10,490 nt of DNA, taken from the UHGV virus genome UHGV-1632715, one strand, 5' to 3'. The DNA comes from a virus. This document shows, in pieces, positions 8 through 10,490 of this stretch; position 1 is the stretch's first letter, and every line of letters begins with the position of its first letter. The position numbers and the translations under genes were made by a program. Under the pieces are notes generated by a model. The model was not told the DNA's origin. It saw only the letters and a program-made list of their open reading frames with translations, and did not search any database.

Positions 8-298
8 TTAACAGCTTTTGTTTGGATACTGCCTTCGTGAGTGAACTACATTTACGATCTCGATGTTAGATGCTGTTACTCGGTAAAGTATTATGTAGTT
101 AGGATGGGTCACTATCTCACGAAGGCCTAGAGCTCTTTCGCTTGGTGGATACAGGTAAGGGTGTTCAGTAAGTGACAAAACTGATGTTTCAATGCGTATT
201 TTTAGTCTACGTGCAGCGGGAGGGTTTTCCTTGGCAATATAGGCTACGATCTGACGCAAATCATCACGCGCAGAAGGTAGCCATAAAATGGGCAGCAT
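8..298 (-). CDS. parE2: Type II toxin, ParE/RelE superfamily (ParE2-like)
   Basis: 96-aa ORF starting MLPILWLPSARDDL with a ParE-like layout by eye. Its ATG overlaps the upstream antitoxin stop by one base (TAATG on the coding strand). Paralog number (parE1 vs parE2) is not certain from memory. Confidence 0.8.
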   Translation of the reverse strand: MLPILWLPSARDDLRQIVAYIAKENPPAARRLKIRIETSVLSLTEHPYLYPPSERALGLREIVTHPNYIILYRVTASNIEIVNVVHSRRQYPNKSC

Positions 299-489
299 TA
301 CTCACTCCTGTTCGTCGAAGCTATTTGCGCAATAAGGTTTTCCATTTCAGCCATTACTTCGTCATGCGGAATTGCAGGACGGGGGTCTGCGAGGCTTGCT
401 GCCACTTTGGTGCGTAACCATTCGTTATAGCTGTTTTCTTGTTCGATTGTTTCAAATTCTGAAATTATCGGGGAAAGGACTGTACTCAT
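298..489 (-). CDS. paaA2: Small antitoxin of the PaaA2 family, partner of ParE
   Basis: 63-aa ORF. The segment SEFETIEQENSYNEWLR..SLADPRPAIPHDEV matches my recollection of PaaA2 from E. coli O157; the C-terminal third differs from what I remember. GGAGG lies 7 nt upstream of the ATG (plus-strand CCTCC at 497-501). It sits immediately upstream of, and is translationally coupled to, the toxin. Confidence 0.75.
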   Translation of the reverse strand: MSTVLSPIISEFETIEQENSYNEWLRTKVAASLADPRPAIPHDEVMAEMENLIAQIASTNRSE

Positions 490-506
490 GTTCTAACCTC
501 CTCAGA

Positions 507-1007
507 TTAGGCGCGAAGACCTTTTTGCGCCTCTAGCCACCGCGCAACGGTTTCTTCAATTGATTCTTTTTTCTCCTTCATTTCCTTAAGCATTTTCTCT
601 TTGTCTTCTTTTGGGAAAGCCCTGAACGTCTGGATCAAATCTCGCTCTATAGGTTCTATATTAAACGGAAGTTCGTTTTCCGATTGTTCCATCTCTGCGG
701 GTAAAGCGACAACATTATCCTGCTGCAGTTCTTGGGGGTACATCCTTACAATTCGTAACAAGTCTGCCATATCTGGTCTAATTGACTCAGGCGGAACTTG
801 TAGCAACCCAGCGAACTTGATAACAGCCTCTAGATTTAAAGGTGTCTGACCATTTAGATAATGGCTTACTGCCCCTTGTGTCGAAAAACCCAGAATTTCT
901 GCCGCACGCTCTTGGGTTAACCCAAGTTGAGTTTTTTTCGTCGTCCAGATTTCTTTCAGTCTCTGGGCGGCTTGCAGGTCGATCTCTGACAGGGGTTTTC
1001 TTTTCAT
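507..1007 (-). CDS. paaR2: Prophage repressor, XRE/CI-type HTH (PaaR2-like), no recognisable S24 peptidase domain
   Basis: 166-aa ORF with an N-terminal HTH (QLGLTQERAAEILGFSTQGAVSHYLNG) of lambda-CI pattern. The C-terminal half is charged/helical with no GDSM or Ser-Lys autocleavage motif seen. It is divergent from the cro-like gene across an operator-bearing spacer and is followed 17 bp later by the antitoxin gene. Confidence 0.8.
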   Translation of the reverse strand: MKRKPLSEIDLQAAQRLKEIWTTKKTQLGLTQERAAEILGFSTQGAVSHYLNGQTPLNLEAVIKFAGLLQVPPESIRPDMADLLRIVRMYPQELQQDNVVALPAEMEQSENELPFNIEPIERDLIQTFRAFPKEDKEKMLKEMKEKKESIEETVARWLEAQKGLRA

Positions 1008-1114: not shown

Positions 1115-1378
1115 ATGAATCTTGGAGAATATTTGCATCATTCCCGTATAACCCAGAAAGATTTTGCTGAAATTGTTGGGGTAACCCAAGGGATGGTAAG
1201 CCATGTTATTACTGGACGGGCGAAACTTACGGGGGGGAAAGTTTTACGCTGGTGTGAAGCAACAGGGTGGGTAGTGACCCCGCACGAGATTGATAGCAGT
1301 ACTTACCCCAACCCAACCGATGGCATACCTGTTGACTATCAGGCTAACACACAACCCGCGCTGGGAGTTGATTCATGA
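1115..1378 (+). CDS. ydaS: Cro-like HTH regulator (YdaS family)
   Basis: 87-aa ORF with HTH ITQKDFAEIVGVTQGMVSHVITG. GAGGTG SD at 1105-1110 precedes the ATG at 1115. It is the first gene of the rightward operon and its stop overlaps the next start (ATGA). Confidence 0.7.
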   Translation: MNLGEYLHHSRITQKDFAEIVGVTQGMVSHVITGRAKLTGGKVLRWCEATGWVVTPHEIDSSTYPNPTDGIPVDYQANTQPALGVDS

Positions 1379-1800
1379 AAATCAAGCATGAACACATCCG
1401 CATGGCGATGAATGTCTGGGCGCATCCGGACGGCGAAAAAGTACCGGCTGCGAAAATTACCAAAGCGTATTTCGAGCTGGGAATGACGTTCCCGGAACTG
1501 TATGACGACAGCCATCCGGAAGCCCTGGCCCGTAATACCCAGAAAATTTTCCGTTGGCTGGATAAAGACACCCCTGATGCTGTTGAAAAAATGCAGGCTC
1601 TGTTACCGGCGATCGAAAAGGCGATGCCGCCTTTGCTGGTGGCCCGTATGCGCAGTCACAGCTCTGAATATTACCGTGAGATCGTCGAACGGAGGGATCG
1701 GCTGGTGAAAGATGTGGATGATTTTGTCGCAGCGGCGATCGCCTGGGGCACCCTGACTAACAGTGGTGGTCAGCCTGGTAATGCTGTTGTCGTGCATTGA
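1375..1800 (+). CDS. ydaT: YdaT-family protein (CII functional analogue of Rac/CP-933P-like prophages)
   Basis: 141-aa ORF with N-terminus MKIKHEHI and C-terminus VVVH, matching my recollection of YdaT. Start overlaps the ydaS-like stop. Confidence 0.65.
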   Translation: MKIKHEHIRMAMNVWAHPDGEKVPAAKITKAYFELGMTFPELYDDSHPEALARNTQKIFRWLDKDTPDAVEKMQALLPAIEKAMPPLLVARMRSHSSEYYREIVERRDRLVKDVDDFVAAAIAWGTLTNSGGQPGNAVVVH

Positions 1801-1868: not shown

Positions 1869-2900
1869 ATGGCTAATGCCTGGCTCAGATTGTGGCATGA
1901 CATGCCAAATGATCCCAAATGGCGAACCATTGCCAGGGTCTCAGGACAGCCAATCGCAACAGTGATGGCGGTGTATATCCACCTTCTGGTGAGTGCGTCA
2001 CGAAATGTCACGACATGTCACGGCGTGTCACTACGTGGTCACATTGATGTCACGACGGAAGATTTAGCAAGTGCGCTTGATGTGACGGAAGACGTAATTG
2101 ATTCAATTTTGCATGCAATGCAGGGGCGGGTTCTGGATGGTGACCTTATTTCCGGATGGGAAAAACGTCAGGTGCTGAAAGAGGACAATGGTAACGTTTC
2201 GCAAACGGCAAAATCCCCGGCAGAGCGCAAGAGAGCGCAGCGGGAGCGGGAAAAGCTGCGGAAACATAATGCTGATTGTCACGATGAGTCACGACGTGTC
2301 ACGCATCTGTCACGACAAGTCACGACAGATAAAGATACAGATACAGAATTAAACCCCACACATAACGCGCGCGAGAGTATTCCGACCAGTGAGTCGAATG
2401 GTGCGCCGTTGCAGACAGCCGAACCTGAATACCTGGACGGCCTGAGCGAACCCATCGGGAAATTTTCGATGACTACTGTCTGGCAGCCGTCGCCGGATTT
2501 TCGACAACGGGCGGCAGTGTGGGGTATGGCTCTGCCTGAGCCGGAATTTACACCTGCTGAGCTTGCCGCATTCCGGGATTACTGGATGGCGGAGGGGAAG
2601 GTTTTCACGCAGGTTCAGTGGGAGCAGAAATTTGCCCGCCACGTGCAGCACGTCAGGGCACAGGTAAAACCAGTCAGCAAGGGGGGAAGCCATGCAGCAT
2701 CAGGTGGCACGGCATCACGGGCAGTTCAGGAAATCCGGGCAGCACGCGAACAGTGGGAACGTGACAACGGATTTATCAGCAACGGAAACGGCCTGGAAGC
2801 TGTGGGAGCTTATGGGGGAGGTGTATTCGAACCGCTGGACTCAGAAGAACGGGGCCGCACCTTCGAAGCTCTGGATTGCCCAGATTGGCACGATGACTGA
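1869..2900 (+). CDS. Replication initiation protein (O-like replisome organizer) with DnaT-like C-terminal region
   Basis: The N-terminal WLRLWHDMPNDPKWRTIA region is replisome-organizer-like. The central/C-terminal segment GKFSMTTVWQPSPDFRQRAAVWGMALPEPEFTPAELAAFRDYWMAEGKVFTQVQWEQKFAR aligns by eye with the E. coli DnaT C-terminal domain. The gene contains two iteron clusters. ATG 1869 is preferred over GTG 1863 because GAGGTGAG at 1858-1865 serves as the SD. Confidence 0.75.
   Translation: MANAWLRLWHDMPNDPKWRTIARVSGQPIATVMAVYIHLLVSASRNVTTCHGVSLRGHIDVTTEDLASALDVTEDVIDSILHAMQGRVLDGDLISGWEKRQVLKEDNGNVSQTAKSPAERKRAQREREKLRKHNADCHDESRRVTHLSRQVTTDKDTDTELNPTHNARESIPTSESNGAPLQTAEPEYLDGLSEPIGKFSMTTVWQPSPDFRQRAAVWGMALPEPEFTPAELAAFRDYWMAEGKVFTQVQWEQKFARHVQHVRAQVKPVSKGGSHAASGGTASRAVQEIRAAREQWERDNGFISNGNGLEAVGAYGGGVFEPLDSEERGRTFEALDCPDWHDD
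1997..2058. repeat. Iteron cluster 1: about six GTCAC(G)-core repeats at ~10-bp phasing
   Basis: Repeat starts at 1997, 2007, 2017, 2027, ~2038 and 2049 (gtcacgaaat / gtcacgacat / gtcacggcgt / gtcactacgt / ggtcacattgat / gtcacgacgg), inside the initiator gene. Confidence 0.6.
2278..2329. repeat. Iteron cluster 2: five GTCACG-core repeats at ~10-bp phasing, followed by an A/T-rich stretch
   Basis: Repeat starts at 2278, 2288, 2298, 2309 and 2319, followed by gataaagatacagatacagaattaaa at 2330-2355. Confidence 0.6.
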
Positions 2901-3354
2901 ACAGCAAATCCGGCTGGTCTGCCGTCAGTGCATGGACCGCTGCCGGGCGGGTGAAACGTGGCCCCCGGACCTGGCTGAGTTTGTTGCGCTGATTTCGGAG
3001 AGTGGGGCAAATCCATTTGGTCTTACGGTGGATGCCGTGATGGAAGAGTACCGGCGCTGGCGCAATGAATCCTGGCGATACGACGGGAGTGATAAATACC
3101 CGTGGCCACAGCCTGTGCTGTACCACATCTGCCTCGAAATGCGTACCAGAGGGATTGAGCGCCAGATGACGCAGGGTGAGTTAAAACGACTTGCGGAACG
3201 GCAACTGACGAAATGGGCAAAGCATGTTGGTAACGGGATGAGTGTTCCGCCAGTGCGACGACAACTGGAAGGGGCGAAACACCCGCAAGGGCCAACGCCA
3301 ATTGAACGGCTGAAACAGGAATACGAACGCCGGAAGGCAGCTGGTTTTATTTGA
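2692..3354 (+). CDS. Replication protein P-like (helicase loader family of lambda P)
   Basis: By-eye similarity to lambda P: YPWPQPVLYHICLEMR vs YPWKSNAHYWLVTNLYQNMR, GMSVPPVRRQLEG vs GEAIPEPVKQLPVMGG, and an upstream TMTEQQ-like segment. ATG 2692 is preceded by GGGGGG at 2681-2686. It overlaps the initiator gene by 209 nt in another frame; alternative starts are 2812 and 2893. Confidence 0.7.
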   Translation: MQHQVARHHGQFRKSGQHANSGNVTTDLSATETAWKLWELMGEVYSNRWTQKNGAAPSKLWIAQIGTMTEQQIRLVCRQCMDRCRAGETWPPDLAEFVALISESGANPFGLTVDAVMEEYRRWRNESWRYDGSDKYPWPQPVLYHICLEMRTRGIERQMTQGELKRLAERQLTKWAKHVGNGMSVPPVRRQLEGAKHPQGPTPIERLKQEYERRKAAGFI

Positions 3355-3387
3355 ATCTGAGAAACGATTTTGTCGGAGGAAATTTTA

Positions 3388-4113
3388 ATGGAAACCGTAT
3401 TTGACGCACTGAAAGCACTGAAAAGAGCCTCTTCACAGGTAGTGGCGGCCCGCCTTGGAATCAGCCGTGAAGATGCGGTCAACGAACTGTGGAAACTGAA
3501 GCGCCGCGGTGAAGCGGATAACAAGGGTTCGATGTGGCGGCTGATTCAGGCTGGTGAAAGTGAACCGGTGTCACCGGTACCGAAAGTGACAGCGCAAATG
3601 CTGACTGAGGCGATTGAACAACATGGCCCACAAACGGCGGATGAGCTGGCACTGATGTTCGGGATTACCTCCCGCCGGGCGAATTCATCGCTGGCCATGG
3701 CAATCAGCAAAGGGCGTCTGATTCGCGTGAATCAGGGCGGTAAATTTCGTTACTGCATACCGGGCGCTGATTTACCGGCAGAGCCGGAAGCTGCATCCGT
3801 AGCGGAAACCGATGGTAAAGCCTTTCCTCAGCCAGCAGGTGTTGCGTTACCTGTCCGGGAAGCAGAAACACAGGAAGAAATAAAAACGGAAAGTGTGGCG
3901 GTCACAGTGCAGTCACAGCCGTCGTTCACCAGAAAACATCCGGATGGTCTGATTTTACCATCGCTGCATGTGGCTAACCGCGAGCTGCGCCGGGCAAAAG
4001 GTCAGGTTCAGAAGTGGGAGCGAGTCTGCGCCGCGCTGCGGGAGCTGAACAAGCACCGGGATATTGTTCGACAGATTACTGATTCTTCCCGCCGTGTTGT
4101 ATCGGAAAAGTGA
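3388..4113 (+). CDS. Hypothetical phage protein (two winged-helix-like segments; possibly DUF1627-like)
   Basis: ATG 3388 is preceded by GGAGGA at 3375-3380; the ORF track began at an upstream TTG. No catalytic motif recognised. Confidence 0.6.
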
Positions 4114-4128
4114 TTGCCGGAGGCGCTT

Positions 4129-4521
4129 ATGGCAAAAGTATTTACACCAGAAGAGCGGGAAGAAGTGAAGGCGCGCATTGTGGAATTCGTGCGCCTGAGC
4201 GGACGAGAAACTTTTCGACAACTGGCAGATAAAACGGGTGTCAGTAAGACCGCTATTCGTCGTTTATCTGGTGCGCTTGCGGCCAGTGGTGATGTCTGGC
4301 TCTCTGGTTGCGGGGTATTTCCATCAGAGCAGGCGTATCGCGTATGGCGTAAGACACCGGAGAAGGCTGCTGACCCGACACTGATTCGAAAGTTACCTGA
4401 CGGAGAAATACGTCGTTACAACAGACGGCAGAACATAATTTGTCGTGAGTGCAGGAGGAGCGAAGTTATGCAGCGTGTGCTGGCGTTCTATCGGGGAAAC
4501 TTTCAGGAGGTGATGGAGTGA
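4129..4521 (+). CDS. Hypothetical protein with HTH-like segment and C-terminal Cys pair
   Basis: ATG 4129 is preceded by GGAGG at 4118-4122. Contains ETFRQLADKTGVSKTAIRRL (HTH-like) and CRECRR. The stop overlaps the next start (GTGA). Confidence 0.55.
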   Translation: MAKVFTPEEREEVKARIVEFVRLSGRETFRQLADKTGVSKTAIRRLSGALAASGDVWLSGCGVFPSEQAYRVWRKTPEKAADPTLIRKLPDGEIRRYNRRQNIICRECRRSEVMQRVLAFYRGNFQEVME

Positions 4522-4814
4522 GGGTCAGAGTTTATATTGCCGGTCCAATGACGGGATATGAAAATTTCAACCGCGAGGCGTTTCACAGGGCGGAAGATGC
4601 GCTGAAACGGGAAGGGCATACCGTTTTAAACCCGGCAGTACTTCCGGACGGGCTGACACAGCCGCACTACATGGATATTTTCATGGCAATGATTCGTTGT
4701 GTGGATGCGATTTACATGCTGAATGGCTGGCAGCGGTCAGCGGGCGCTAAGGCAGAGCTGGCACTGGCGGAGAAACTGGGGCATGCAGTGATTTATCAGG
4801 AGGTGGCTCAATGA
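4518..4814 (+). CDS. DUF4406-like protein (nucleoside 2-deoxyribosyltransferase-like fold family)
   Basis: The motif RVYIAGPMTGYENFN...V.NP...ML.GW..S.GA..E matches the DUF4406 pattern as I recall it. Proposed GTG start at 4518, 7 nt after GGAGG at 4506-4510, gives 98 aa; the 121-aa track ORF likely over-extends upstream. Confidence 0.6.
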   Translation: MRVRVYIAGPMTGYENFNREAFHRAEDALKREGHTVLNPAVLPDGLTQPHYMDIFMAMIRCVDAIYMLNGWQRSAGAKAELALAEKLGHAVIYQEVAQ

Positions 4815-5272
4815 GAGAGGTTAACTATGAGGCGCTTCGTGAGGCAGCACAAAACTATCAGTCGACGCTGGCGTGGTATCAGGCTATCCCGGACAGCCCA
4901 AATGCTGAACGGGATTGTGATGCGGCTCTTGCTGCGTTTAAGCGTCACATCCGTCATCGGGAAGCGGATATTATCGCTGATTTGCTGGATGGACTGGAAG
5001 AAGCAAAATCACAACTCAAAGAGCAGCGTGAGTATTACGAAGGCGTTATCTCTGATGGGAGCAAGCGTATTGCTGAACTGGAAGCGCGGGAAGTTCAATT
5101 ACCGACTCGCTACGACCTTCGATATGGACACCCGATAAATGCAGATGAGCGACATGTCATGATACCTAAAGAAAATGGCAGTTGGCTTTACCTGATTGAC
5201 CTAGAACACGCATTACGCGTCTCTGGCATTCGCATCAAAGGAGAGGAGCATGGAAATAAAACCAGAGGATGA
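4811..5272 (+). CDS. Hypothetical phage protein
   Basis: 153-aa ORF whose ATG overlaps the previous stop (ATGA); GGAGG at 4798-4802. No family recognised. Confidence 0.6.
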   Translation: MREVNYEALREAAQNYQSTLAWYQAIPDSPNAERDCDAALAAFKRHIRHREADIIADLLDGLEEAKSQLKEQREYYEGVISDGSKRIAELEAREVQLPTRYDLRYGHPINADERHVMIPKENGSWLYLIDLEHALRVSGIRIKGEEHGNKTRG

Positions 5273-5606
5273 GTTAAGCAATATCGTTTTATTTCCGGTA
5301 AAAGAGGATGACCCTCGTAATCAGGTTAATTTTCTTTATGAGCCATCGGAAAGACCATATTGTCATCACGCCTCTGTCCGGGTTGACGAAAAAGAGCGTC
5401 AGGTCCGCTGTAAAATCTGCGGTGCAGTTGTGGAGCCATTTGACTGGATGCTCTCTGTGGCGAAAAGAGAAACCAGACTGGCAGATGATGTAAGGCACTT
5501 GCGCCAGGAGGAGCGGGAAAGGCGAAAAAATATAGAAAAGCTAATTCAGATTGAGCGTAACGCGAAAGCGCGGATACGCAGGGCGACAAAATCCAGAACT
5601 GAATAA
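5250..5606 (+). CDS. Hypothetical protein with zinc-ribbon-like motif and basic coiled-coil tail
   Basis: 118-aa ORF with CHH...CKICG spacing and a C-terminal RQEERERRKNIEKLIQIERNAKARIRR. Overlaps the upstream gene by 23 nt. Confidence 0.55.
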   Translation: MEIKPEDELSNIVLFPVKEDDPRNQVNFLYEPSERPYCHHASVRVDEKERQVRCKICGAVVEPFDWMLSVAKRETRLADDVRHLRQEERERRKNIEKLIQIERNAKARIRRATKSRTE

Positions 5607-5699
5607 TTAAATTTAGCTCTGTTAAAAATTTAATCCTTAACCGGAGGGATTTCTGCACCCTCAGAACATCAGGAGGCCGCCCGAAAGGGCGGTAGTTAA

Positions 5700-5882
5700 A
5701 TGCGAAAGTTTAAAATAATTATTGAAACGGGAATAGCCGGTGGAGATTTCGAGGATGAATTCGAAGTGGATGATGATGCGACGCCTGATGAAATACATGA
5801 CGAAGCAAAAGATATTTTCTTTAACTACTGCAATTACTCATATCACGAAATAAAAGACGAAGAGGAAGAGCAAAATGGCTGA
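5700..5882 (+). CDS. Small highly acidic protein (60 aa)
   Basis: About 20 Asp/Glu against 5 Lys/Arg by my count. AGGAGG at 5671-5676 is separated from the ATG by a 6-bp GNRA-loop hairpin (5677-5692). Confidence 0.5.
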   Translation: MRKFKIIIETGIAGGDFEDEFEVDDDATPDEIHDEAKDIFFNYCNYSYHEIKDEEEEQNG

Positions 5883-6051
5883 TTTTGGTTCAACTAAATA
5901 CAACGTCAGTTTTGAAGCATGGCATGAACTGTTAATGGACTATGCAGAGTTACGTGGTGGCAGTGCTGCTGATGCTGAAGCATGGCGTGATGATTATGAA
6001 GCAGGAAAAACTCCGGTCGAAGCATATTGTGATGAGTGGGGCGATGAATGA
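5875..6051 (+). CDS. Small acidic protein (58 aa), not in the ORF track
   Basis: Hand translation: MADFGSTKYNVSFEAWHELLMDYAELRGGSAADAEAWRDDYEAGKTPVEAYCDEWGDE. Its ATG overlaps the upstream stop (ATGGCTGA) and its stop overlaps the next ATG at 6048. Confidence 0.4.
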   Translation: MADFGSTKYNVSFEAWHELLMDYAELRGGSAADAEAWRDDYEAGKTPVEAYCDEWGDE

Positions 6052-6563
6052 GCGAGATTAATTATCAGGAAGGGCATGAAACGGCAGGGGAGGCAAAAAC
6101 AGTTGCATGGCGATATCGCTACGTGAAAAAAGACGTTACAGACTTTCAGGGGAAGCCGTGGGCTGGTGACTGGAAATATGTACCGACAAAAGAGGATTGT
6201 AACGACAGGCCGAACTATGAAATTCAGGCCTTATTCATCGGCCCGCCAGTCCCGGTGACATCAGAAGGACTGGTTAAAGCCGTGCGCTTTTATGAACAGG
6301 TAAAGCGTGAGAATCCGCCAGTCGAAACAGGAGCATGGAAGGATGCTGTTGACTGGGTGCTCAGAGAGGCCTGCTGCGCTGCCATTCTGGGTAAAGCCGA
6401 CAATCCACCAGCATCCGGCAATCAGGTTAGCGAATTAACAATGTGGGTTAAACGACTGGTCAGTCAACTGAAAAAAGCTCAGCCGGACTGCAAATTACCG
6501 GAGAAGGCGATGGATTACCTGAAACGAAATGGACTGATAAGCGTGGAGGATGTTTTACGATGA
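6048..6563 (+). CDS. Hypothetical phage protein
   Basis: 171-aa ORF, translationally coupled to the upstream small ORF. No family recognised. Confidence 0.6.
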   Translation: MSEINYQEGHETAGEAKTVAWRYRYVKKDVTDFQGKPWAGDWKYVPTKEDCNDRPNYEIQALFIGPPVPVTSEGLVKAVRFYEQVKRENPPVETGAWKDAVDWVLREACCAAILGKADNPPASGNQVSELTMWVKRLVSQLKKAQPDCKLPEKAMDYLKRNGLISVEDVLR

Positions 6564-6683
6564 ATATTTAGACTAAAGAGTTTGTAACGCTATGTAAGTG
6601 ATTTTTTCTGGTTTAGATATTTATATGTCCGGCCAAATTGAGGTGTGTTTAAATGTTATTGCACATTGATTGTAGGGGGAATA

Positions 6684-6863
6684 ATGAAAAACGCATTGCA
6701 GTTTTTGTTTGTTGCGTTCTGGTTGTTCGCATCATGTATGCCCATCATCTTCACAGCAAGGTATATGGAAAAAATTGATGTTTTGATATTAATGTTTGGA
6801 CATATAAATGCCCTTTTTTTAGGGGTGTTCATGGCGGTCATGTGCATTGAATACTGGCGGTAA
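6684..6863 (+). CDS. Small hydrophobic protein (59 aa, two predicted TM helices) in AT-rich island
   Basis: ATG 6684 is preceded by AGGGGGA at 6673-6679. Hydrophobic segments ALQFLFVAFWLFASCMPIIF and INALFLGVFMAVMCIEYW. Base composition is visibly lower in GC than the flanks. Confidence 0.4.
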   Translation: MKNALQFLFVAFWLFASCMPIIFTARYMEKIDVLILMFGHINALFLGVFMAVMCIEYWR

Positions 6864-6918
6864 ATACAGCGAACGCCATTGGTTTAGTTGGATATTTACT
6901 GTGCCGGACAAAAACGGT

Positions 6919-6946
6919 TTGCGGGGAAATCTTAGTTAAGTAGAAT
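6919..6946 (+). promoter_or_regulatory. Candidate promoter for hok mRNA (-35 TTGCGG, 16-bp spacer, -10 TAGAAT)
   Basis: Hexamers at 6919-6924 and 6941-6946; the predicted start lies just upstream of the tac-like 5' element. Confidence 0.35.
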
Positions 6947-6950
6947 AACT

Positions 6951-6964
6951 GCGGGTGCTTGAGG
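6951..6964 (+). promoter_or_regulatory. 5' element of hok mRNA (tac-like) complementary to the 3' fbi-like element
   Basis: GCGGGTGCTTGAGG is the near-perfect reverse complement of CCTCAACGCACCCGC at 7329-7343, with one unpaired base. Confidence 0.55.
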
Positions 6965-7065
6965 CTATCTGTCTCAGGCATGAACACCAAAAGGCAGATA
7001 GAGAAAAGCCCCAGTTAACATTACGCGTCCGGCAAGACGCTTAACATTAATCTGAGGCCATATCT

Positions 7066-7272
7066 ATGCTCTACACACGTAGGTTAGCCTCTTACGGACC
7101 GAAAGGTCAAGGAGAAGCAGGCTATGAAGCAGCAAAAGGCGATGTTAATCGCCCTGATCGTCATCTGTTTAACCGTCATAGTGACGGCACTGGTAACGAG
7201 GAAAGACCTCTGCGAGGTACGAATCCGAACCGGCCAGACGGAGGTCGCTGTCTTCACAGCTTACGAACCTGA
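7066..7272 (+). CDS. mok-like overlapping reading frame (modulator of hok translation)
   Basis: 68-aa ORF in a different frame that starts 58 nt upstream of hok and spans almost all of it, as in hok/mok loci. Confidence 0.45.
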   Translation: MLYTRRLASYGPKGQGEAGYEAAKGDVNRPDRHLFNRHSDGTGNEERPLRGTNPNRPDGGRCLHSLRT

Positions 7273-7279
7273 GGAGTAA
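7124..7279 (+). CDS. hokD: Hok/Gef-family type I toxin (HokD/RelF-like), 51 aa
   Basis: Hand translation MKQQKAMLIALIVICLTVIVTALVTRKDLCEVRIRTGQTEVAVFTAYEPEE matches my recollection of HokD. Flanked by the mok-like frame, 5'/3' complementary elements and a terminator. Below the ORF-track length cutoff. Confidence 0.85.
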   Translation: MKQQKAMLIALIVICLTVIVTALVTRKDLCEVRIRTGQTEVAVFTAYEPEE

Positions 7280-7328
7280 GAGACCTGGCGAGGGAGAAAT
7301 CCCTCGCCACCTCTGATGAGTCAGGCAT

Positions 7329-7343
7329 CCTCAACGCACCCGC
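7329..7343 (+). promoter_or_regulatory. 3' fbi-like element of hok mRNA
   Basis: Complementary to 6951-6964; it lies between the hok stop and the terminator. Confidence 0.5.
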
Positions 7344-7349
7344 ACTTAA

Positions 7350-7377
7350 CCCGCTTCGGCGGGTTTTGTTTTTTCCT
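7350..7377 (+). terminator. Rho-independent terminator of hok transcript
   Basis: Stem CCCGC / GCGGG with a UUCG tetraloop (7350-7363), followed by the T-run ttttgttttttcc. Confidence 0.7.
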
Positions 7378-7726: not shown

Positions 7727-8785
7727 GTGCGGGTATTACTTCGACCTGTTCTGGTACCGGAACTCGGGCTGGTGATCGTTAAGCCGGGCCGTGAATCCAT
7801 GCCGGTATTCCACAATACCCGGGTACTGGTGGAGCCGGAACCGAAAAGCATGCGTAATCTGCCGTCCGGAGTCGTCCCTGCTGTTCGCCAGCCGCTGGCG
7901 GAGGATAAATCATTACTGCCATTTTTCAGCGACGAACGAGTGATTCGTGCTGCTGGTGGCGCTGGCGCATTGTCTGACTGGTTACTGCGCCATGTTAAAT
8001 CCTGCCAGTGGCCACACGGTGATTATCATCACAGCGAAACCGTCATTCACCGTTACGGTACCGGCGCGATGGTGTTGTGCTGGCACTGCGACAACCAGCT
8101 GCGTGACCAGACATCCGAATCACTCGGGCAACTTGCTCATCAAAACCTGTCAGCATGGATGATTGACGTCATCGGTCACGCAATAAGCGGTACGCAGGAG
8201 CGTGAATTATCTCTGGCTGAATTATCCTGGTGGGCGGTCCGCAATCAGGTGGCGGACGCGCTACCGGAAGCGGTATTACGTCGTTCGCTGGGGTTGCGTG
8301 CGGAAAAAATCCGCTCAATGTACCGTGAAAGCGACATCGTACCGGGAGAGCAGACCGCCACCAGCATACTGAAACAGCGCACAAAAAATCTTGCGCCGCT
8401 GCCTCACGCCCACCAGCAACAGAACCCACCACAAGAAAAGACGGTGGTCAGCATTGCCGTTGATCCGGAATCTCCGGCTCAGTATCTCCAGCGCCAGAAA
8501 CCACAACGGGAAGAGATGCCTGTATACACGCGCTGGGTAAAAACGCAGAAATGCATGACGTGTGGCAATCAGGCAGATGATCCGCATCACATCATTGGTC
8601 ATGGACTGGGAGGGATGGGAACAAAGGCTGACGATTTGTTTGTTATTCCGTTGTGCCGTAAATGCCATAACAAACTACATGCCGGAGTAAAAGATTTTGA
8701 AGAAAAACACGGCAGTCAGTTGTTGTTGCTGATTCGTTTTTTAATGCACGCGAGAAATTCGGGTGTTCTGAAGTGGAAAGCATAA
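7727..8785 (+). CDS. Possible DUF968-family phage protein (YdfU-like) with C-terminal HNH-like Cys/His motif
   Basis: 352-aa ORF with GTG start 5 nt after GGAGG (7717-7721), directly after the upstream stop. The C-terminus CMTCGNQADDPHHIIGHGLGG...CRKCHNKLH resembles an HNH/zinc-finger signature. The DUF968 assignment is from memory. Confidence 0.6.
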   Translation: MRVLLRPVLVPELGLVIVKPGRESMPVFHNTRVLVEPEPKSMRNLPSGVVPAVRQPLAEDKSLLPFFSDERVIRAAGGAGALSDWLLRHVKSCQWPHGDYHHSETVIHRYGTGAMVLCWHCDNQLRDQTSESLGQLAHQNLSAWMIDVIGHAISGTQERELSLAELSWWAVRNQVADALPEAVLRRSLGLRAEKIRSMYRESDIVPGEQTATSILKQRTKNLAPLPHAHQQQNPPQEKTVVSIAVDPESPAQYLQRQKPQREEMPVYTRWVKTQKCMTCGNQADDPHHIIGHGLGGMGTKADDLFVIPLCRKCHNKLHAGVKDFEEKHGSQLLLLIRFLMHARNSGVLKWKA

Positions 8786-9151
8786 ATGACCGAACGCATA
8801 GAATTTGTTTTGCCTTACCCGCCGACGGTGAACACTTACTGGCGACGCCGTGGCAGCACATATTTTATCTCGGAGGAGGGAAAGCGTTATCGCCGGGCTG
8901 TGGCGCTTATTGTTCGCCAGCAGCGGCTGAAATTAAGCCTGTCCGGAAGGCTGGCGATAAAGGTGATTGCAGAGCCACCGGATAAGCGTCGTCGCGACCT
9001 GGACAACATTCTGAAAGCACCGCTGGATGCGCTGACGCATGCGGGGTTGTTAATGGACGATGAGCAGTTTGATGAAATCAATATTGTACGTGGTCAGCCA
9101 GTATCTGGTGGACGGCTGGGTGTGAAGATTTACAAAATTGAGAGTGAGTGA
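8786..9151 (+). CDS. rusA: Holliday junction resolvase RusA
   Basis: 121-aa ORF; the core PDKRRRDLDNILKAPLDALTHAGLLMDDEQ aligns with E. coli RusA ([23 protein letters not shown]..DDAQ) as I recall it. Confidence 0.9.
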   Translation: MTERIEFVLPYPPTVNTYWRRRGSTYFISEEGKRYRRAVALIVRQQRLKLSLSGRLAIKVIAEPPDKRRRDLDNILKAPLDALTHAGLLMDDEQFDEINIVRGQPVSGGRLGVKIYKIESE

Positions 9152-9714
9152 GCGTAAATATGATATATCCGGAAATTACAGGCAAAAGCGGCGAGCATTT
9201 ACGCCTAAAAACGCTGGAAGCAGTCTGGATCCAAGGGCGATTACGGATGTGGGGGCGTTGGTCGTATATTGGCGGCGGTAAGACGGGAAATATGTTCAAC
9301 CAATTACTGACCTCTAAAAAGCTGACAAAAACGGCAATTAACGAGGCGCTCCGGAGGATGAAAAAAGCTGGTCTGGACAAACCTGAACTTGAGGCTTTTT
9401 TGCGGGATATGATCAACGGCAATCAAAAAAGCTGGCTGGCACATTGTACCGATTCAGAGGCGTTAATAATCGACAGGGTTATTGGCGAAGTCCTGGCAGG
9501 CTATCCCGGGCTGCTCAATGTCCTGAGTCAGCGTTATGTGGGGCGGGGGATGACTAAGCGCAAAATGGCTGAACTGCTGAATGATGCACACCCGGAATGG
9601 AGTTTAAGAACCTGTGAAAGACGCATTGAGCATTGGCTAAAGGTGGCAGAATTTATTTTGTACAAACCAATGGTTATGGCTTTTGGTATAGAGAAAAAAG
9701 TTATTGCTTTTTGA
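9148..9714 (+). CDS. Putative late-gene antitermination protein (Q-like), assigned mainly by position
   Basis: It is the last gene before a promoter-like sequence, a hairpin and a strong terminator, downstream of rusA as in lambdoid nin-Q regions. The start is either GTG 9148 (overlapping the rusA stop) or ATG 9160. I cannot match the sequence to a specific Q family. Confidence 0.5.
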   Translation: MSVNMIYPEITGKSGEHLRLKTLEAVWIQGRLRMWGRWSYIGGGKTGNMFNQLLTSKKLTKTAINEALRRMKKAGLDKPELEAFLRDMINGNQKSWLAHCTDSEALIIDRVIGEVLAGYPGLLNVLSQRYVGRGMTKRKMAELLNDAHPEWSLRTCERRIEHWLKVAEFILYKPMVMAFGIEKKVIAF

Positions 9715-10146: not shown

Positions 10147-10466
10147 ATTTGTGGTAAATGGGCGGCTGGTGGGTGTGGTGGTTGTTGCTTTCCCGTTGCT
10201 GAAAAAGAAAGCATCAGGCGATTAGCAGGGTATCAGTTACCCGTTGAAATTTTTAAATACCTCACAATTCAGGCGGTTGACTGTTGTCTGGTTTGCGGGG
10301 AGTTTGTTAAAAGAAACTGGCATGGTGAATCCCCCTGTGCGGAGGGGCAATCAGCAACTGGTGTTTTGTCACCGACCCTTATCCTTTCTGTGCGGGTTCA
10401 GGTGCTGATACTGAACTCACCGGGAGGCACCCGGCACCATGCAATGGCACATAGCGCCACTCTCCA

Positions 10467-10490
10467 GCCCCTCTCCGGAGGGGCTTTCTT
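10467..10490 (+). terminator. Hairpin with short T-rich tail, possible terminator, truncated by window end
   Basis: Stem GCCCCTC / GAGGGGC with loop TCCG, followed by tttctt. Confidence 0.35.

Follow-up and report, generated by a model that had tools for sequence, protein, structure and literature searches.

A hok/mok/sok type I toxin-antitoxin locus, apparently intact in sequence, in the early region of a lambdoid prophage

The regulatory elements of hok messenger RNAs (mRNAs), namely tac, fbi, ucb, dcb, and the protective 3′ stem-loop, take their names and roles from the literature on plasmid R1 (PMC9841398). Besides the hok/mok/sok (parB) locus of R1, the relatives considered here are the flm locus of plasmid F, the hokW-mokW-sokW locus of phage 933W and the Sakai prophage Sp5, the hok-mok locus of Escherichia phage Rac (MN652886), and hokD (relF) in the Qin prophage of Escherichia coli K-12. 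A survey found hok to be enriched in prophages (bioRxiv 10.1101/2025.08.07.668861). In this study, I analyzed a stretch of 10,490 nucleotides (nt) of viral DNA (UHGV virus genome UHGV-1632715), which is called the window in its entirety. Positions 6919-7373 of the window are very probably a canonical locus of the hok/mok/sok type I toxin-antitoxin family, with an intact sequence and belonging to the hokD/hokW lineage that lambdoid prophages of E. coli carry. The prophage here is itself lambdoid, and the locus occupies its nin region, between the replication genes and DUF968-rusA-Q. All the elements named in the original prediction, which was made from the letters alone, were found at coordinates that were exact or off by no more than 2 nt. 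In addition, the gene for the antisense Sok RNA, which had not been delimited before, was placed on the minus strand from about 7074 to 7003. The elements of the locus are as follows.

6919-6946, plus strand: hok/mok promoter, with the -35 TTGCGG (6919-6924), a 16-nt spacer, and the -10 TAGAAT (6941-6946)
6953-7373, plus strand: full-length hok mRNA of ~420 nt, extending from G6953, the inferred start, to the U-tract of the terminator
6953-6964, plus strand: tac (translational activator element), GGGUGCUUGAGG, the 5′ fold-back partner
6971-6981, plus strand: anti-tac segment, predicted to form a metastable 5′ hairpin with tac in the nascent transcript
7003-7074, minus strand: putative Sok-like antisense RNA of ~72 nt, positioned from the annotated sokW of 933W and the alignment
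7006-7014, plus strand: ucb, an anti-Shine-Dalgarno (anti-SD) box, AAGCCCCAG, predicted to bind the mok SD when the RNA is closed and tac when it is open
7054-7057, plus strand: mok SD GAGG, 8 nt 5′ of the mok ATG (7066), read from the sequence
7066-7272, plus strand: mok reading frame of 68 codons, out of frame with hok and ending 7 nt before the hok stop
7081-7110, minus strand: predicted Sok promoter, with the -35 TTGACC (7110-7105), an 18-nt spacer, and the -10 TAACCT (7086-7081)
7087-7091, plus strand: dcb (GCCUC), predicted to pair with the mok SD region in the open form (a helix of the Rfam consensus and of the minimum free energy (MFE) structure of the first 140 nt)
7124-7279, plus strand: hok toxin gene of 51 amino acids, MKQQKAMLIALIVICLTVIVTALVTRKDLCEVRIRTGQTEVAVFTAYEPEE, with the SD GGAG at 7111-7114
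7287-7308, plus strand: GC-rich hairpin of the 3′ untranslated region (UTR), GGCGAGGGA-GAAA-UCCCUCGCC
7329-7341, plus strand: fbi (fold-back inhibitory element), CCUCAACGCACCC, which is the 3′ element that pairs with tac and leaves C7335 bulged
7348-7373, plus strand: intrinsic terminator AACCCGC-UUCG-GCGGGTT (7348-7365) with a 7-bp stem, followed by a T-run (the U-tract of the RNA)

Relation to the described hok loci

It was found that the R1 and F loci share with the window tac, the predicted metastable hairpin, ucb, the mok SD, dcb, the 3′ hairpin, fbi, and the terminator, together with an out-of-frame mok and a dcb overlapping the Sok promoter. Their leaders belong to the same Rfam family, and the Sok promoter block is conserved. 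In contrast, their Hok has only 41% identity to the window Hok, and their tac GGCGC... pairs with ...GCGCC, where the window has GGGUGC/GCACCC. The register of their fbi differs as well, since it has no bulged C, and the Sok-target hairpin of the window has an insertion of ~16 nt at its tip relative to theirs. Their host replicon is a conjugative plasmid, whereas that of the window is a prophage.

The 933W/Sp5 locus is 91.6% identical to the window in DNA over 6910-7351, and the two Hok sequences are 92% identical. The -35 and -10 of the hok promoter, tac, fbi, and the Sok -10 are shared identically, and the tip of the Sok hairpin is likewise extended in 933W. However, the 933W mokW extends hokW at the N-terminus, in the hokW frame and with a common stop, whereas one extra T at 7107 puts the window mok in a different frame from hok. 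This single-base indel between the window and 933W also falls in the Sok -35. The mok frame is out of frame in phage Rac and in an IncY plasmid as in the window, and in frame in the 933W record (1656-1868 of the extracted locus L001); an out-of-frame mok open reading frame (ORF) was looked for in the chromosomal hokC, and none was found. Furthermore, no UUCG terminator is present in the 45 nt that follow the 933W fbi, and the 933W locus is found close to the right end of the phage genome instead of in the nin region. The C-terminus of Hok reads TAYEPEE in the window and VDYESEK in HokW.

The phage Rac locus is 95.2% identical in DNA, has a UUCG terminator like that of the window, and encodes an annotated Mok that is equal in frame and length and 93% identical to the window mok product. 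It differs by a few substitutions (e.g., I19V in Hok) and by the gene downstream of hok, which is rem in phage Rac and an ORF of 90 amino acids in the window.

The K-12 hokD gene encodes a Hok (HokD, or RelF) that is 100% identical to the window Hok over the full length. Window positions 7110-7367, which are 98.5% identical in DNA to K-12, cover the coding region of hok as well as the 3′ hairpin, fbi, and the terminator, and the downstream neighborhood (DUF968 followed by rusA-type genes) is also common to both. However, the K-12 locus begins 14 nt 5′ of the hok ATG, where it is fused behind relBE. Since its upstream DNA is relB-relE, the laboratory reference copy has no promoter, tac, ucb, mok start, or sok, all of which are present in the window. 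An echo of this relBEF fusion was seen in the Enterobacter plasmid OW967487, in which relB-relE lies directly upstream of an R1-type hok.

The window locus is ordinary and already known, and it is annotated in thousands of genomes. The 415-nt sequence of 6953-7367 is 100% identical in E. coli SW070917, where the coding sequence is annotated as hokD. Among 5426 complete E. coli genomes, 4938 have a match to this query, and the match covers at least 80% of the 415 nt in 4009. The locus had been thought to stand out as intact against many disrupted chromosomal copies. This is true relative to K-12 and its derivatives, whose copy starts at window position 7110 behind relBE, but intact copies are the norm (4009/5426). 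The intactness is thus correct yet unremarkable outside K-12.

The coding frames agree with this assignment. The proposed 51-amino-acid toxin matched Pfam PF01848 HOK_GEF (E=1.2e-23; 82.9 bits against a cut-off of 22) and PHROG 251 'MokW-like host killing' (E=2.8e-33), which, together with its identity to HokD, bears out its place in the Hok family. The Hok models of NCBIfam matched the window Hok only under their curated cut-offs (48.5 vs 73). The overlapping mok-like frame is intact, differs in frame from hok as proposed, and matched PHROG 37205 (E=6.8e-23). The hok leader (6953-7126, plus strand) matched Rfam RF01794 with 109.5 bits against a gathering score of 59 (E=9e-25), and the match spans the full model (1-157) and ends at the hok AUG. 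RF01794 is named 'sok', yet it models the sense-strand hok leader. It is predicted that hok is translationally coupled to mok, and that Hok kills via inner-membrane damage and is neutralized by Sok. HokW, which is 92% identical to the window Hok, is toxic, and sokW neutralizes it from its own promoter (PMC8621323). A reading of the locus as disrupted was dismissed, since the two ORFs, the two promoters, tac, fbi, and the terminator could all be found and agree with those of functional relatives.

The hok transcript and its 5′-3′ fold-back

The candidate promoter (TTGCGG, 16 bp, TAGAAT) was found as proposed, and its -35 agrees with the consensus at three of six positions. Promoters were judged by their conservation in homologues in place of a consensus scan. 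A TAnAAT -10 was seen at a fixed distance from the conserved GG(G/C) mRNA start in 14 homologues, although their upstream DNA cannot otherwise be aligned. This conservation supports both the -10 and the transcription start at G6953. The start of the RF01794 model coincides exactly with 6953. At the other end of the transcript, the UUCG-loop terminator was also found. The GC-rich 3′ UTR hairpin forms in the folds of both the full-length and the 3′-truncated RNA, and it is kept with compensatory changes among the homologues (RNAalifold columns 372-378 with 385-393). By analogy, this hairpin would correspond to the R1 stem-loop by which the truncated hok mRNA is protected (PMC9841398).

The original prediction had paired 6951-6964 with 7329-7343. 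The pairing is present, but an RNA duplex of 14-15 nt is not, since 6951-6952 precede the likely start at 6953. Thus, the RNA duplex is formed by 6953-6964 and 7329-7341 and has 12 bp with C7335 bulged, while the repeat at the DNA level reaches two bases further (6951-6952 with 7342-7343). The reverse complement of 6953-6964 (GGGTGCTTGAGG, with a gap of 0-1 nt) has a single other occurrence in the 10.5-kb window. It lies at 7329-7341 (CCTCAACGCACCC) and ends seven bases 5′ of the terminator stem. By chance, 0.01 matches are expected in the window, and two matches occurred in none of 200 shuffles. The full-length RNA (6953-7367) has an MFE of -172.8 kcal/mol (z=-9.2), and its 5′ end is paired to fbi. 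Folding with and without the 3′ end, as had been suggested, revealed that the tac/fbi helix of the full-length MFE structure is gone after truncation.

Is this fold-back maintained in other hok loci? I gathered hok loci from phages, from plasmids, and from one genome per species across bacteria, the last of which yielded 79 loci. These 79 are mostly enterobacterial (Escherichia, Shigella, Kluyvera, Photorhabdus, Pantoea, Citrobacter, Erwinia, Klebsiella, Leclercia, Buttiauxella, Dryocola, and Sodalis), and a few of them are on short contigs labelled with unrelated genera. A structure-blind MAFFT alignment was built from 31 full-length mRNAs of about 12 genera, among them Escherichia, Kluyvera, Photorhabdus, Pantoea, Citrobacter, Erwinia, Klebsiella, Leclercia, and Dryocola. 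Four plasmid loci (L004, L008, L009, and L010, the last being the Enterobacter copy behind relB-relE) were left out because the Rfam search found no leader; L004 and L008 have an insertion sequence (IS) or transposase gene directly upstream.

In nearly all the loci retaining a tac-like 5′ end, the best partner lies 335-385 nt downstream, and fbi is aligned column for column in the 31 mRNAs. In the tac/fbi structure, 83.7% of the alignment cells are paired, and sliding the 3′ partner by 1-3 columns lowers this share to 29-61%. Unguided RNAalifold on the 31 homologues recovered the tac/fbi helix (columns 2-6 with 435-439) as the sole long-range helix. The pair of columns 4 and 437 covaries (CG in 15 mRNAs, UA in 13, UG in 2, and one mismatch). 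The pairs also differ by lineage, with GGGUGC/GCACCC in hokD, hokC, and hokW and GGCGC/GCGCC in R1/F and Photorhabdus. Further compensation is seen in GAGG/CCUC versus GAGA/UCUC, and in Enterobacillus a change of U7 to C in tac is matched by a change of A to G in fbi. Disruption of the pairing across homologues had been named as the outcome that would speak against the fold-back. The opposite was found: the pairing is conserved with compensatory changes. A tac/fbi-type 5′-3′ fold-back, which forms in the MFE structure of the full-length RNA, disappears upon 3′ truncation, and covaries, is thereby borne out.

The proximal five or six pairs of the helix are clean, while the distal six score poorly under a single fixed register because the R1-type and Photorhabdus-type loci, without the bulged C, are shifted by one column. 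In per-sequence duplexes, the distal half of the helix is preserved. One fixed register for all homologues was therefore rejected, since the lineages differ in the bulged base. Copies without a fold-back partner are visibly damaged. For example, the IncY plasmid CP081764 (L013) has IS421 directly 3′ of hok, which removes fbi.

Two side observations concern the hok mRNA. First, the Tyr47 codon UAC (7262-7264, within 7260-7268) lies in UUACGAA, and UACGAA is invariant in all 31 aligned hok mRNAs. This is the context in which A-to-I editing by TadA (Tyr to Cys) is reported for hokB and, in a preprint (bioRxiv 10.1101/2025.08.07.668861), for hokC, hokD, and hokE as well. RNAalifold instead pairs the UUAC of this context with GUAA across the hok stop codon. 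Second, the hok 3′ UTR gave sub-threshold matches to Rfam isrK, a small RNA of Salmonella Gifsy-1 (window 7288-7369 and L003 1360-1440; 27.8 and 33.2 bits against a gathering score of 50). No support for a link between isrK and the hok 3′ UTR was found in the literature. A BLAST search with the 3′ UTR gave no Salmonella or Gifsy-type record among the matches listed, with two Salmonella records counted and uninspected. On these grounds the relation is left as a mere note, and the resemblance may be a chance similarity of two hairpins.

Alternative folds and the antisense Sok RNA

The tac/anti-tac hairpin is the MFE structure of the first 30-45 nt, and RNAalifold recovered this metastable helix in columns 9-13 with 20-24. 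The helix covaries, with one pair being GC in 16 mRNAs, GU in 9, and AU in 6. In the full-length MFE structure, 7008-7014 (GCCCCAG) in ucb is paired with 7052-7058, which sequesters the mok SD. In the MFE structure of the leader only, 6953-6960 is paired with 7006-7012, which is the helix of the Rfam consensus. Moreover, the MFE structure of the first 62-140 nt is exactly the open Rfam structure, consisting of tac/ucb, the Sok-target hairpin, and SD/dcb. Forcing the tac/ucb pairing costs 12.8 kcal/mol in the full-length RNA and 2.6 kcal/mol in the RNA truncated at 7326. A flip of the truncated-RNA MFE structure to the open form was expected and was not obtained; the energy gap alone shrinks. 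These folds support the direction of the predicted switch, but they fail to reproduce the switch itself.

In the predicted fold of the Sok-like RNA (-28.6 kcal/mol, z=-4.6), a 5′ tail of 15 nt stays unpaired and is followed by a long terminator hairpin and the tail CUUUUC. The unpaired 5′ tail and the flank of the hairpin complement the SD and the start codon of mok. The Sok promoter block, CTCCTTG(A)CC...GTAAGAGGCTA(A/T)(C/T)CT, is conserved in 933W, Rac, the IncY plasmid, hokC, and the flm locus of the F plasmid, and the -10 TAACCT matches the consensus at three of six positions.

The mechanism is proposed by homology with plasmid R1 hok/sok, with selected pairings shown in silico. A weak constitutive promoter would produce the ~420-nt mRNA from G6953. 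In the nascent RNA, tac would be held in the local metastable hairpin with 6971-6981, as the folding of the first nucleotides suggests. In the full-length RNA, tac would pair with fbi at 7329-7341, and ucb would occlude the mok SD, in agreement with the in silico folding and the covariation. With the SD occluded, neither mok nor the coupled hok would be translated, and the binding of Sok would be blocked. Slow exonucleolytic trimming of the 3′ end would then strip fbi, so that tac could pair with ucb and open the mok initiation region and the Sok-target hairpin. The unstable antisense Sok may pair across the mok start, and the duplex would be destroyed. When Sok drops, possibly through loss of the element, a transcription block, or prophage induction, Mok and then Hok would be translated. 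The 51-amino-acid Hok would insert into the inner membrane, and the cell would be killed or lysed.

Prophage context and possible roles

The whole window represents the early region of a lambdoid prophage. Its other features, with the hok locus in its place among them, are as follows.

8-298, minus strand: ParE toxin (PF05016 ParE_toxin, E=4e-18)
298-489, minus strand: PaaA2 antitoxin (PF21217 PaaA2, E=2.9e-22), immediately preceding the ParE gene
507-1007, minus strand: helix-turn-helix (HTH) repressor
1115-1378, plus strand: cro-like gene, divergent from the repressor gene
1375-1800, plus strand: YdaT, labelled 'YdaT_toxin'
1863-2900 and 2692-3354, plus strand: O-like and P-like replication genes
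3370-6863, plus strand: several nin-type ORFs
6919-7373, plus strand, with sok on the minus strand: hok locus
7727-8785, plus strand: DUF968
8786-9151, plus strand: RusA
9148-9714, plus strand: Q-like DUF1133 (antiterminator gene)

The claim that two mechanistically different toxin systems are present was confirmed, as a type II ParE/PaaA2 module accompanies the type I hok locus. The PaaA2-type product also matched the RelB-family antitoxin model of NCBIfam (92.1 bits against a cut-off of 50). The ParE, PaaA2, and HTH repressor genes (8-1007, minus strand) resemble the three-gene PaaR2-PaaA2-ParE2 arrangement described for an E. coli O157 cryptic prophage, in which the toxin-antitoxin regulator also serves as the immunity repressor. 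The 'YdaT_toxin' is the third toxin-named gene in the window. Downstream of the Q-like gene, an Rfam STnc100 match at 10291-10490 (132.5 bits against a gathering score of 47) runs off the window end and is probably part of the late-promoter leader region. The stretch with the lowest GC content in the window is 6601-6900 (36%). The ORF at 6645-6863, just 5′ of the hok promoter, encodes a strongly hydrophobic sequence of 72 amino acids with no match in Pfam, NCBIfam, or PHROG, and it may be a small membrane-protein moron.

By analogy with hokW-sokW of Sp5, the likely role of the hok locus is prophage-linked killing or lysis, which would aid phage release on induction or cause addiction to the element. 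The hokW-sokW locus aids the release of Sp5 (PMC8621323). Several points weigh against this overall reading of the locus. The consensus promoter scan missed both the hok and the sok promoters, which are sub-consensus; the hok promoter was unlisted because its -35 is weak. The MFE structure of the 3′-truncated whole RNA keeps the mok SD closed, and the open form lies 2.6 to 5 kcal/mol above the truncated-RNA MFE, depending on the cut site. At -21.5 kcal/mol, the best duplex between tac and the 3′ UTR is no stronger than the strongest obtained with 30 shuffled tac sequences (minimum -21.9). This test is not discriminating because the 3′ UTR is GC-rich, and it was replaced by exact-match statistics and covariation; it is therefore the exact complementarity, the position, and the covariation, and not the energy, that argue for the fold-back. 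That this copy is transcribed, 3′-processed, and toxic, and that its Sok is expressed, is a prediction from sequence and relatives. Finally, the chromosomal hokA, hokB, and hokC loci gave no post-segregational killing (summarised in bioRxiv 10.1101/2025.08.07.668861), so an intact sequence is no guarantee of activity.

Among the alternatives, the module might serve mainly for phage exclusion (abortive infection), not for prophage maintenance or help in lysis: a superinfecting phage would shut off host transcription, Sok would be depleted, and Hok would be released. This is rather improbable, although it keeps a better standing than the other alternatives. The ParE/PaaA2 module in the window fits a toxin-accumulating prophage, but hok is not enriched near defence systems (bioRxiv 10.1101/2025.08.07.668861), and the sole experiment on a close relative points to help in the release of Sp5 (PMC8621323). 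The content of the window favors no role, and the roles are not mutually exclusive.

It is somewhat less probable still that the locus is a physiologically silent relic, intact in sequence but with promoters or processing too weak to kill. The silence reported for several chromosomal hok loci would fit such a relic, as would two promoters that escaped the scan and a Sok -10 with three of six matches. However, the same TTGCGG/TAGAAT and TAACCT are found in the hokW-sokW locus of 933W/Sp5, a working pair that affects phage release (PMC8621323), and the regulatory elements and both frames are kept across genera with compensatory changes, which implies ongoing selection. The idea that the 5′-3′ complementarity is a chance match or a DNA-level inverted repeat with no role in RNA folding is very improbable and already effectively refuted by covariation: the duplex energy no better than the best shuffled control and the two further nucleotides of DNA repeat beyond the RNA start would agree with it, but only 0.01 matches are expected in the window, the partner is always just 5′ of the terminator at 335-385 nt from the 5′ end in many genera, compensatory substitutions maintain the pairing, and a copy that has lost it (the IncY plasmid) carries an IS insertion there.

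Returning to the reading as prophage-linked killing or lysis, the hok locus lies in sense orientation within the delayed-early rightward operon, between the P/nin genes and Q. It is conceivable, if doubtful, that read-through from the early promoter after induction silences the Sok promoter by transcriptional interference, and that the resulting mok-hok transcripts escape the fbi lock, since fbi could not close an RNA that lacks the 5′ end with tac. If so, the release of Hok would be wired directly to prophage induction, and Hok would be an early lysis helper that need not depend on Sok decay alone. As a lesser variant, the processed 3′ fragment (the hairpin, fbi, and the terminator, with the sub-threshold IsrK-like match) might act as a separate small RNA.

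The hok locus of the window opens no new question. Its value is in annotation, as public records label the hok coding sequence only and omit mok, sok, and the RNA elements, and many phage records name the hok gene 'RelF inactive antibacterial toxin' or 'mobile element protein'. The K-12 hokD is a 5′-truncated remnant, whereas the window provides a clean, fully mapped, intact locus of the hokD type.

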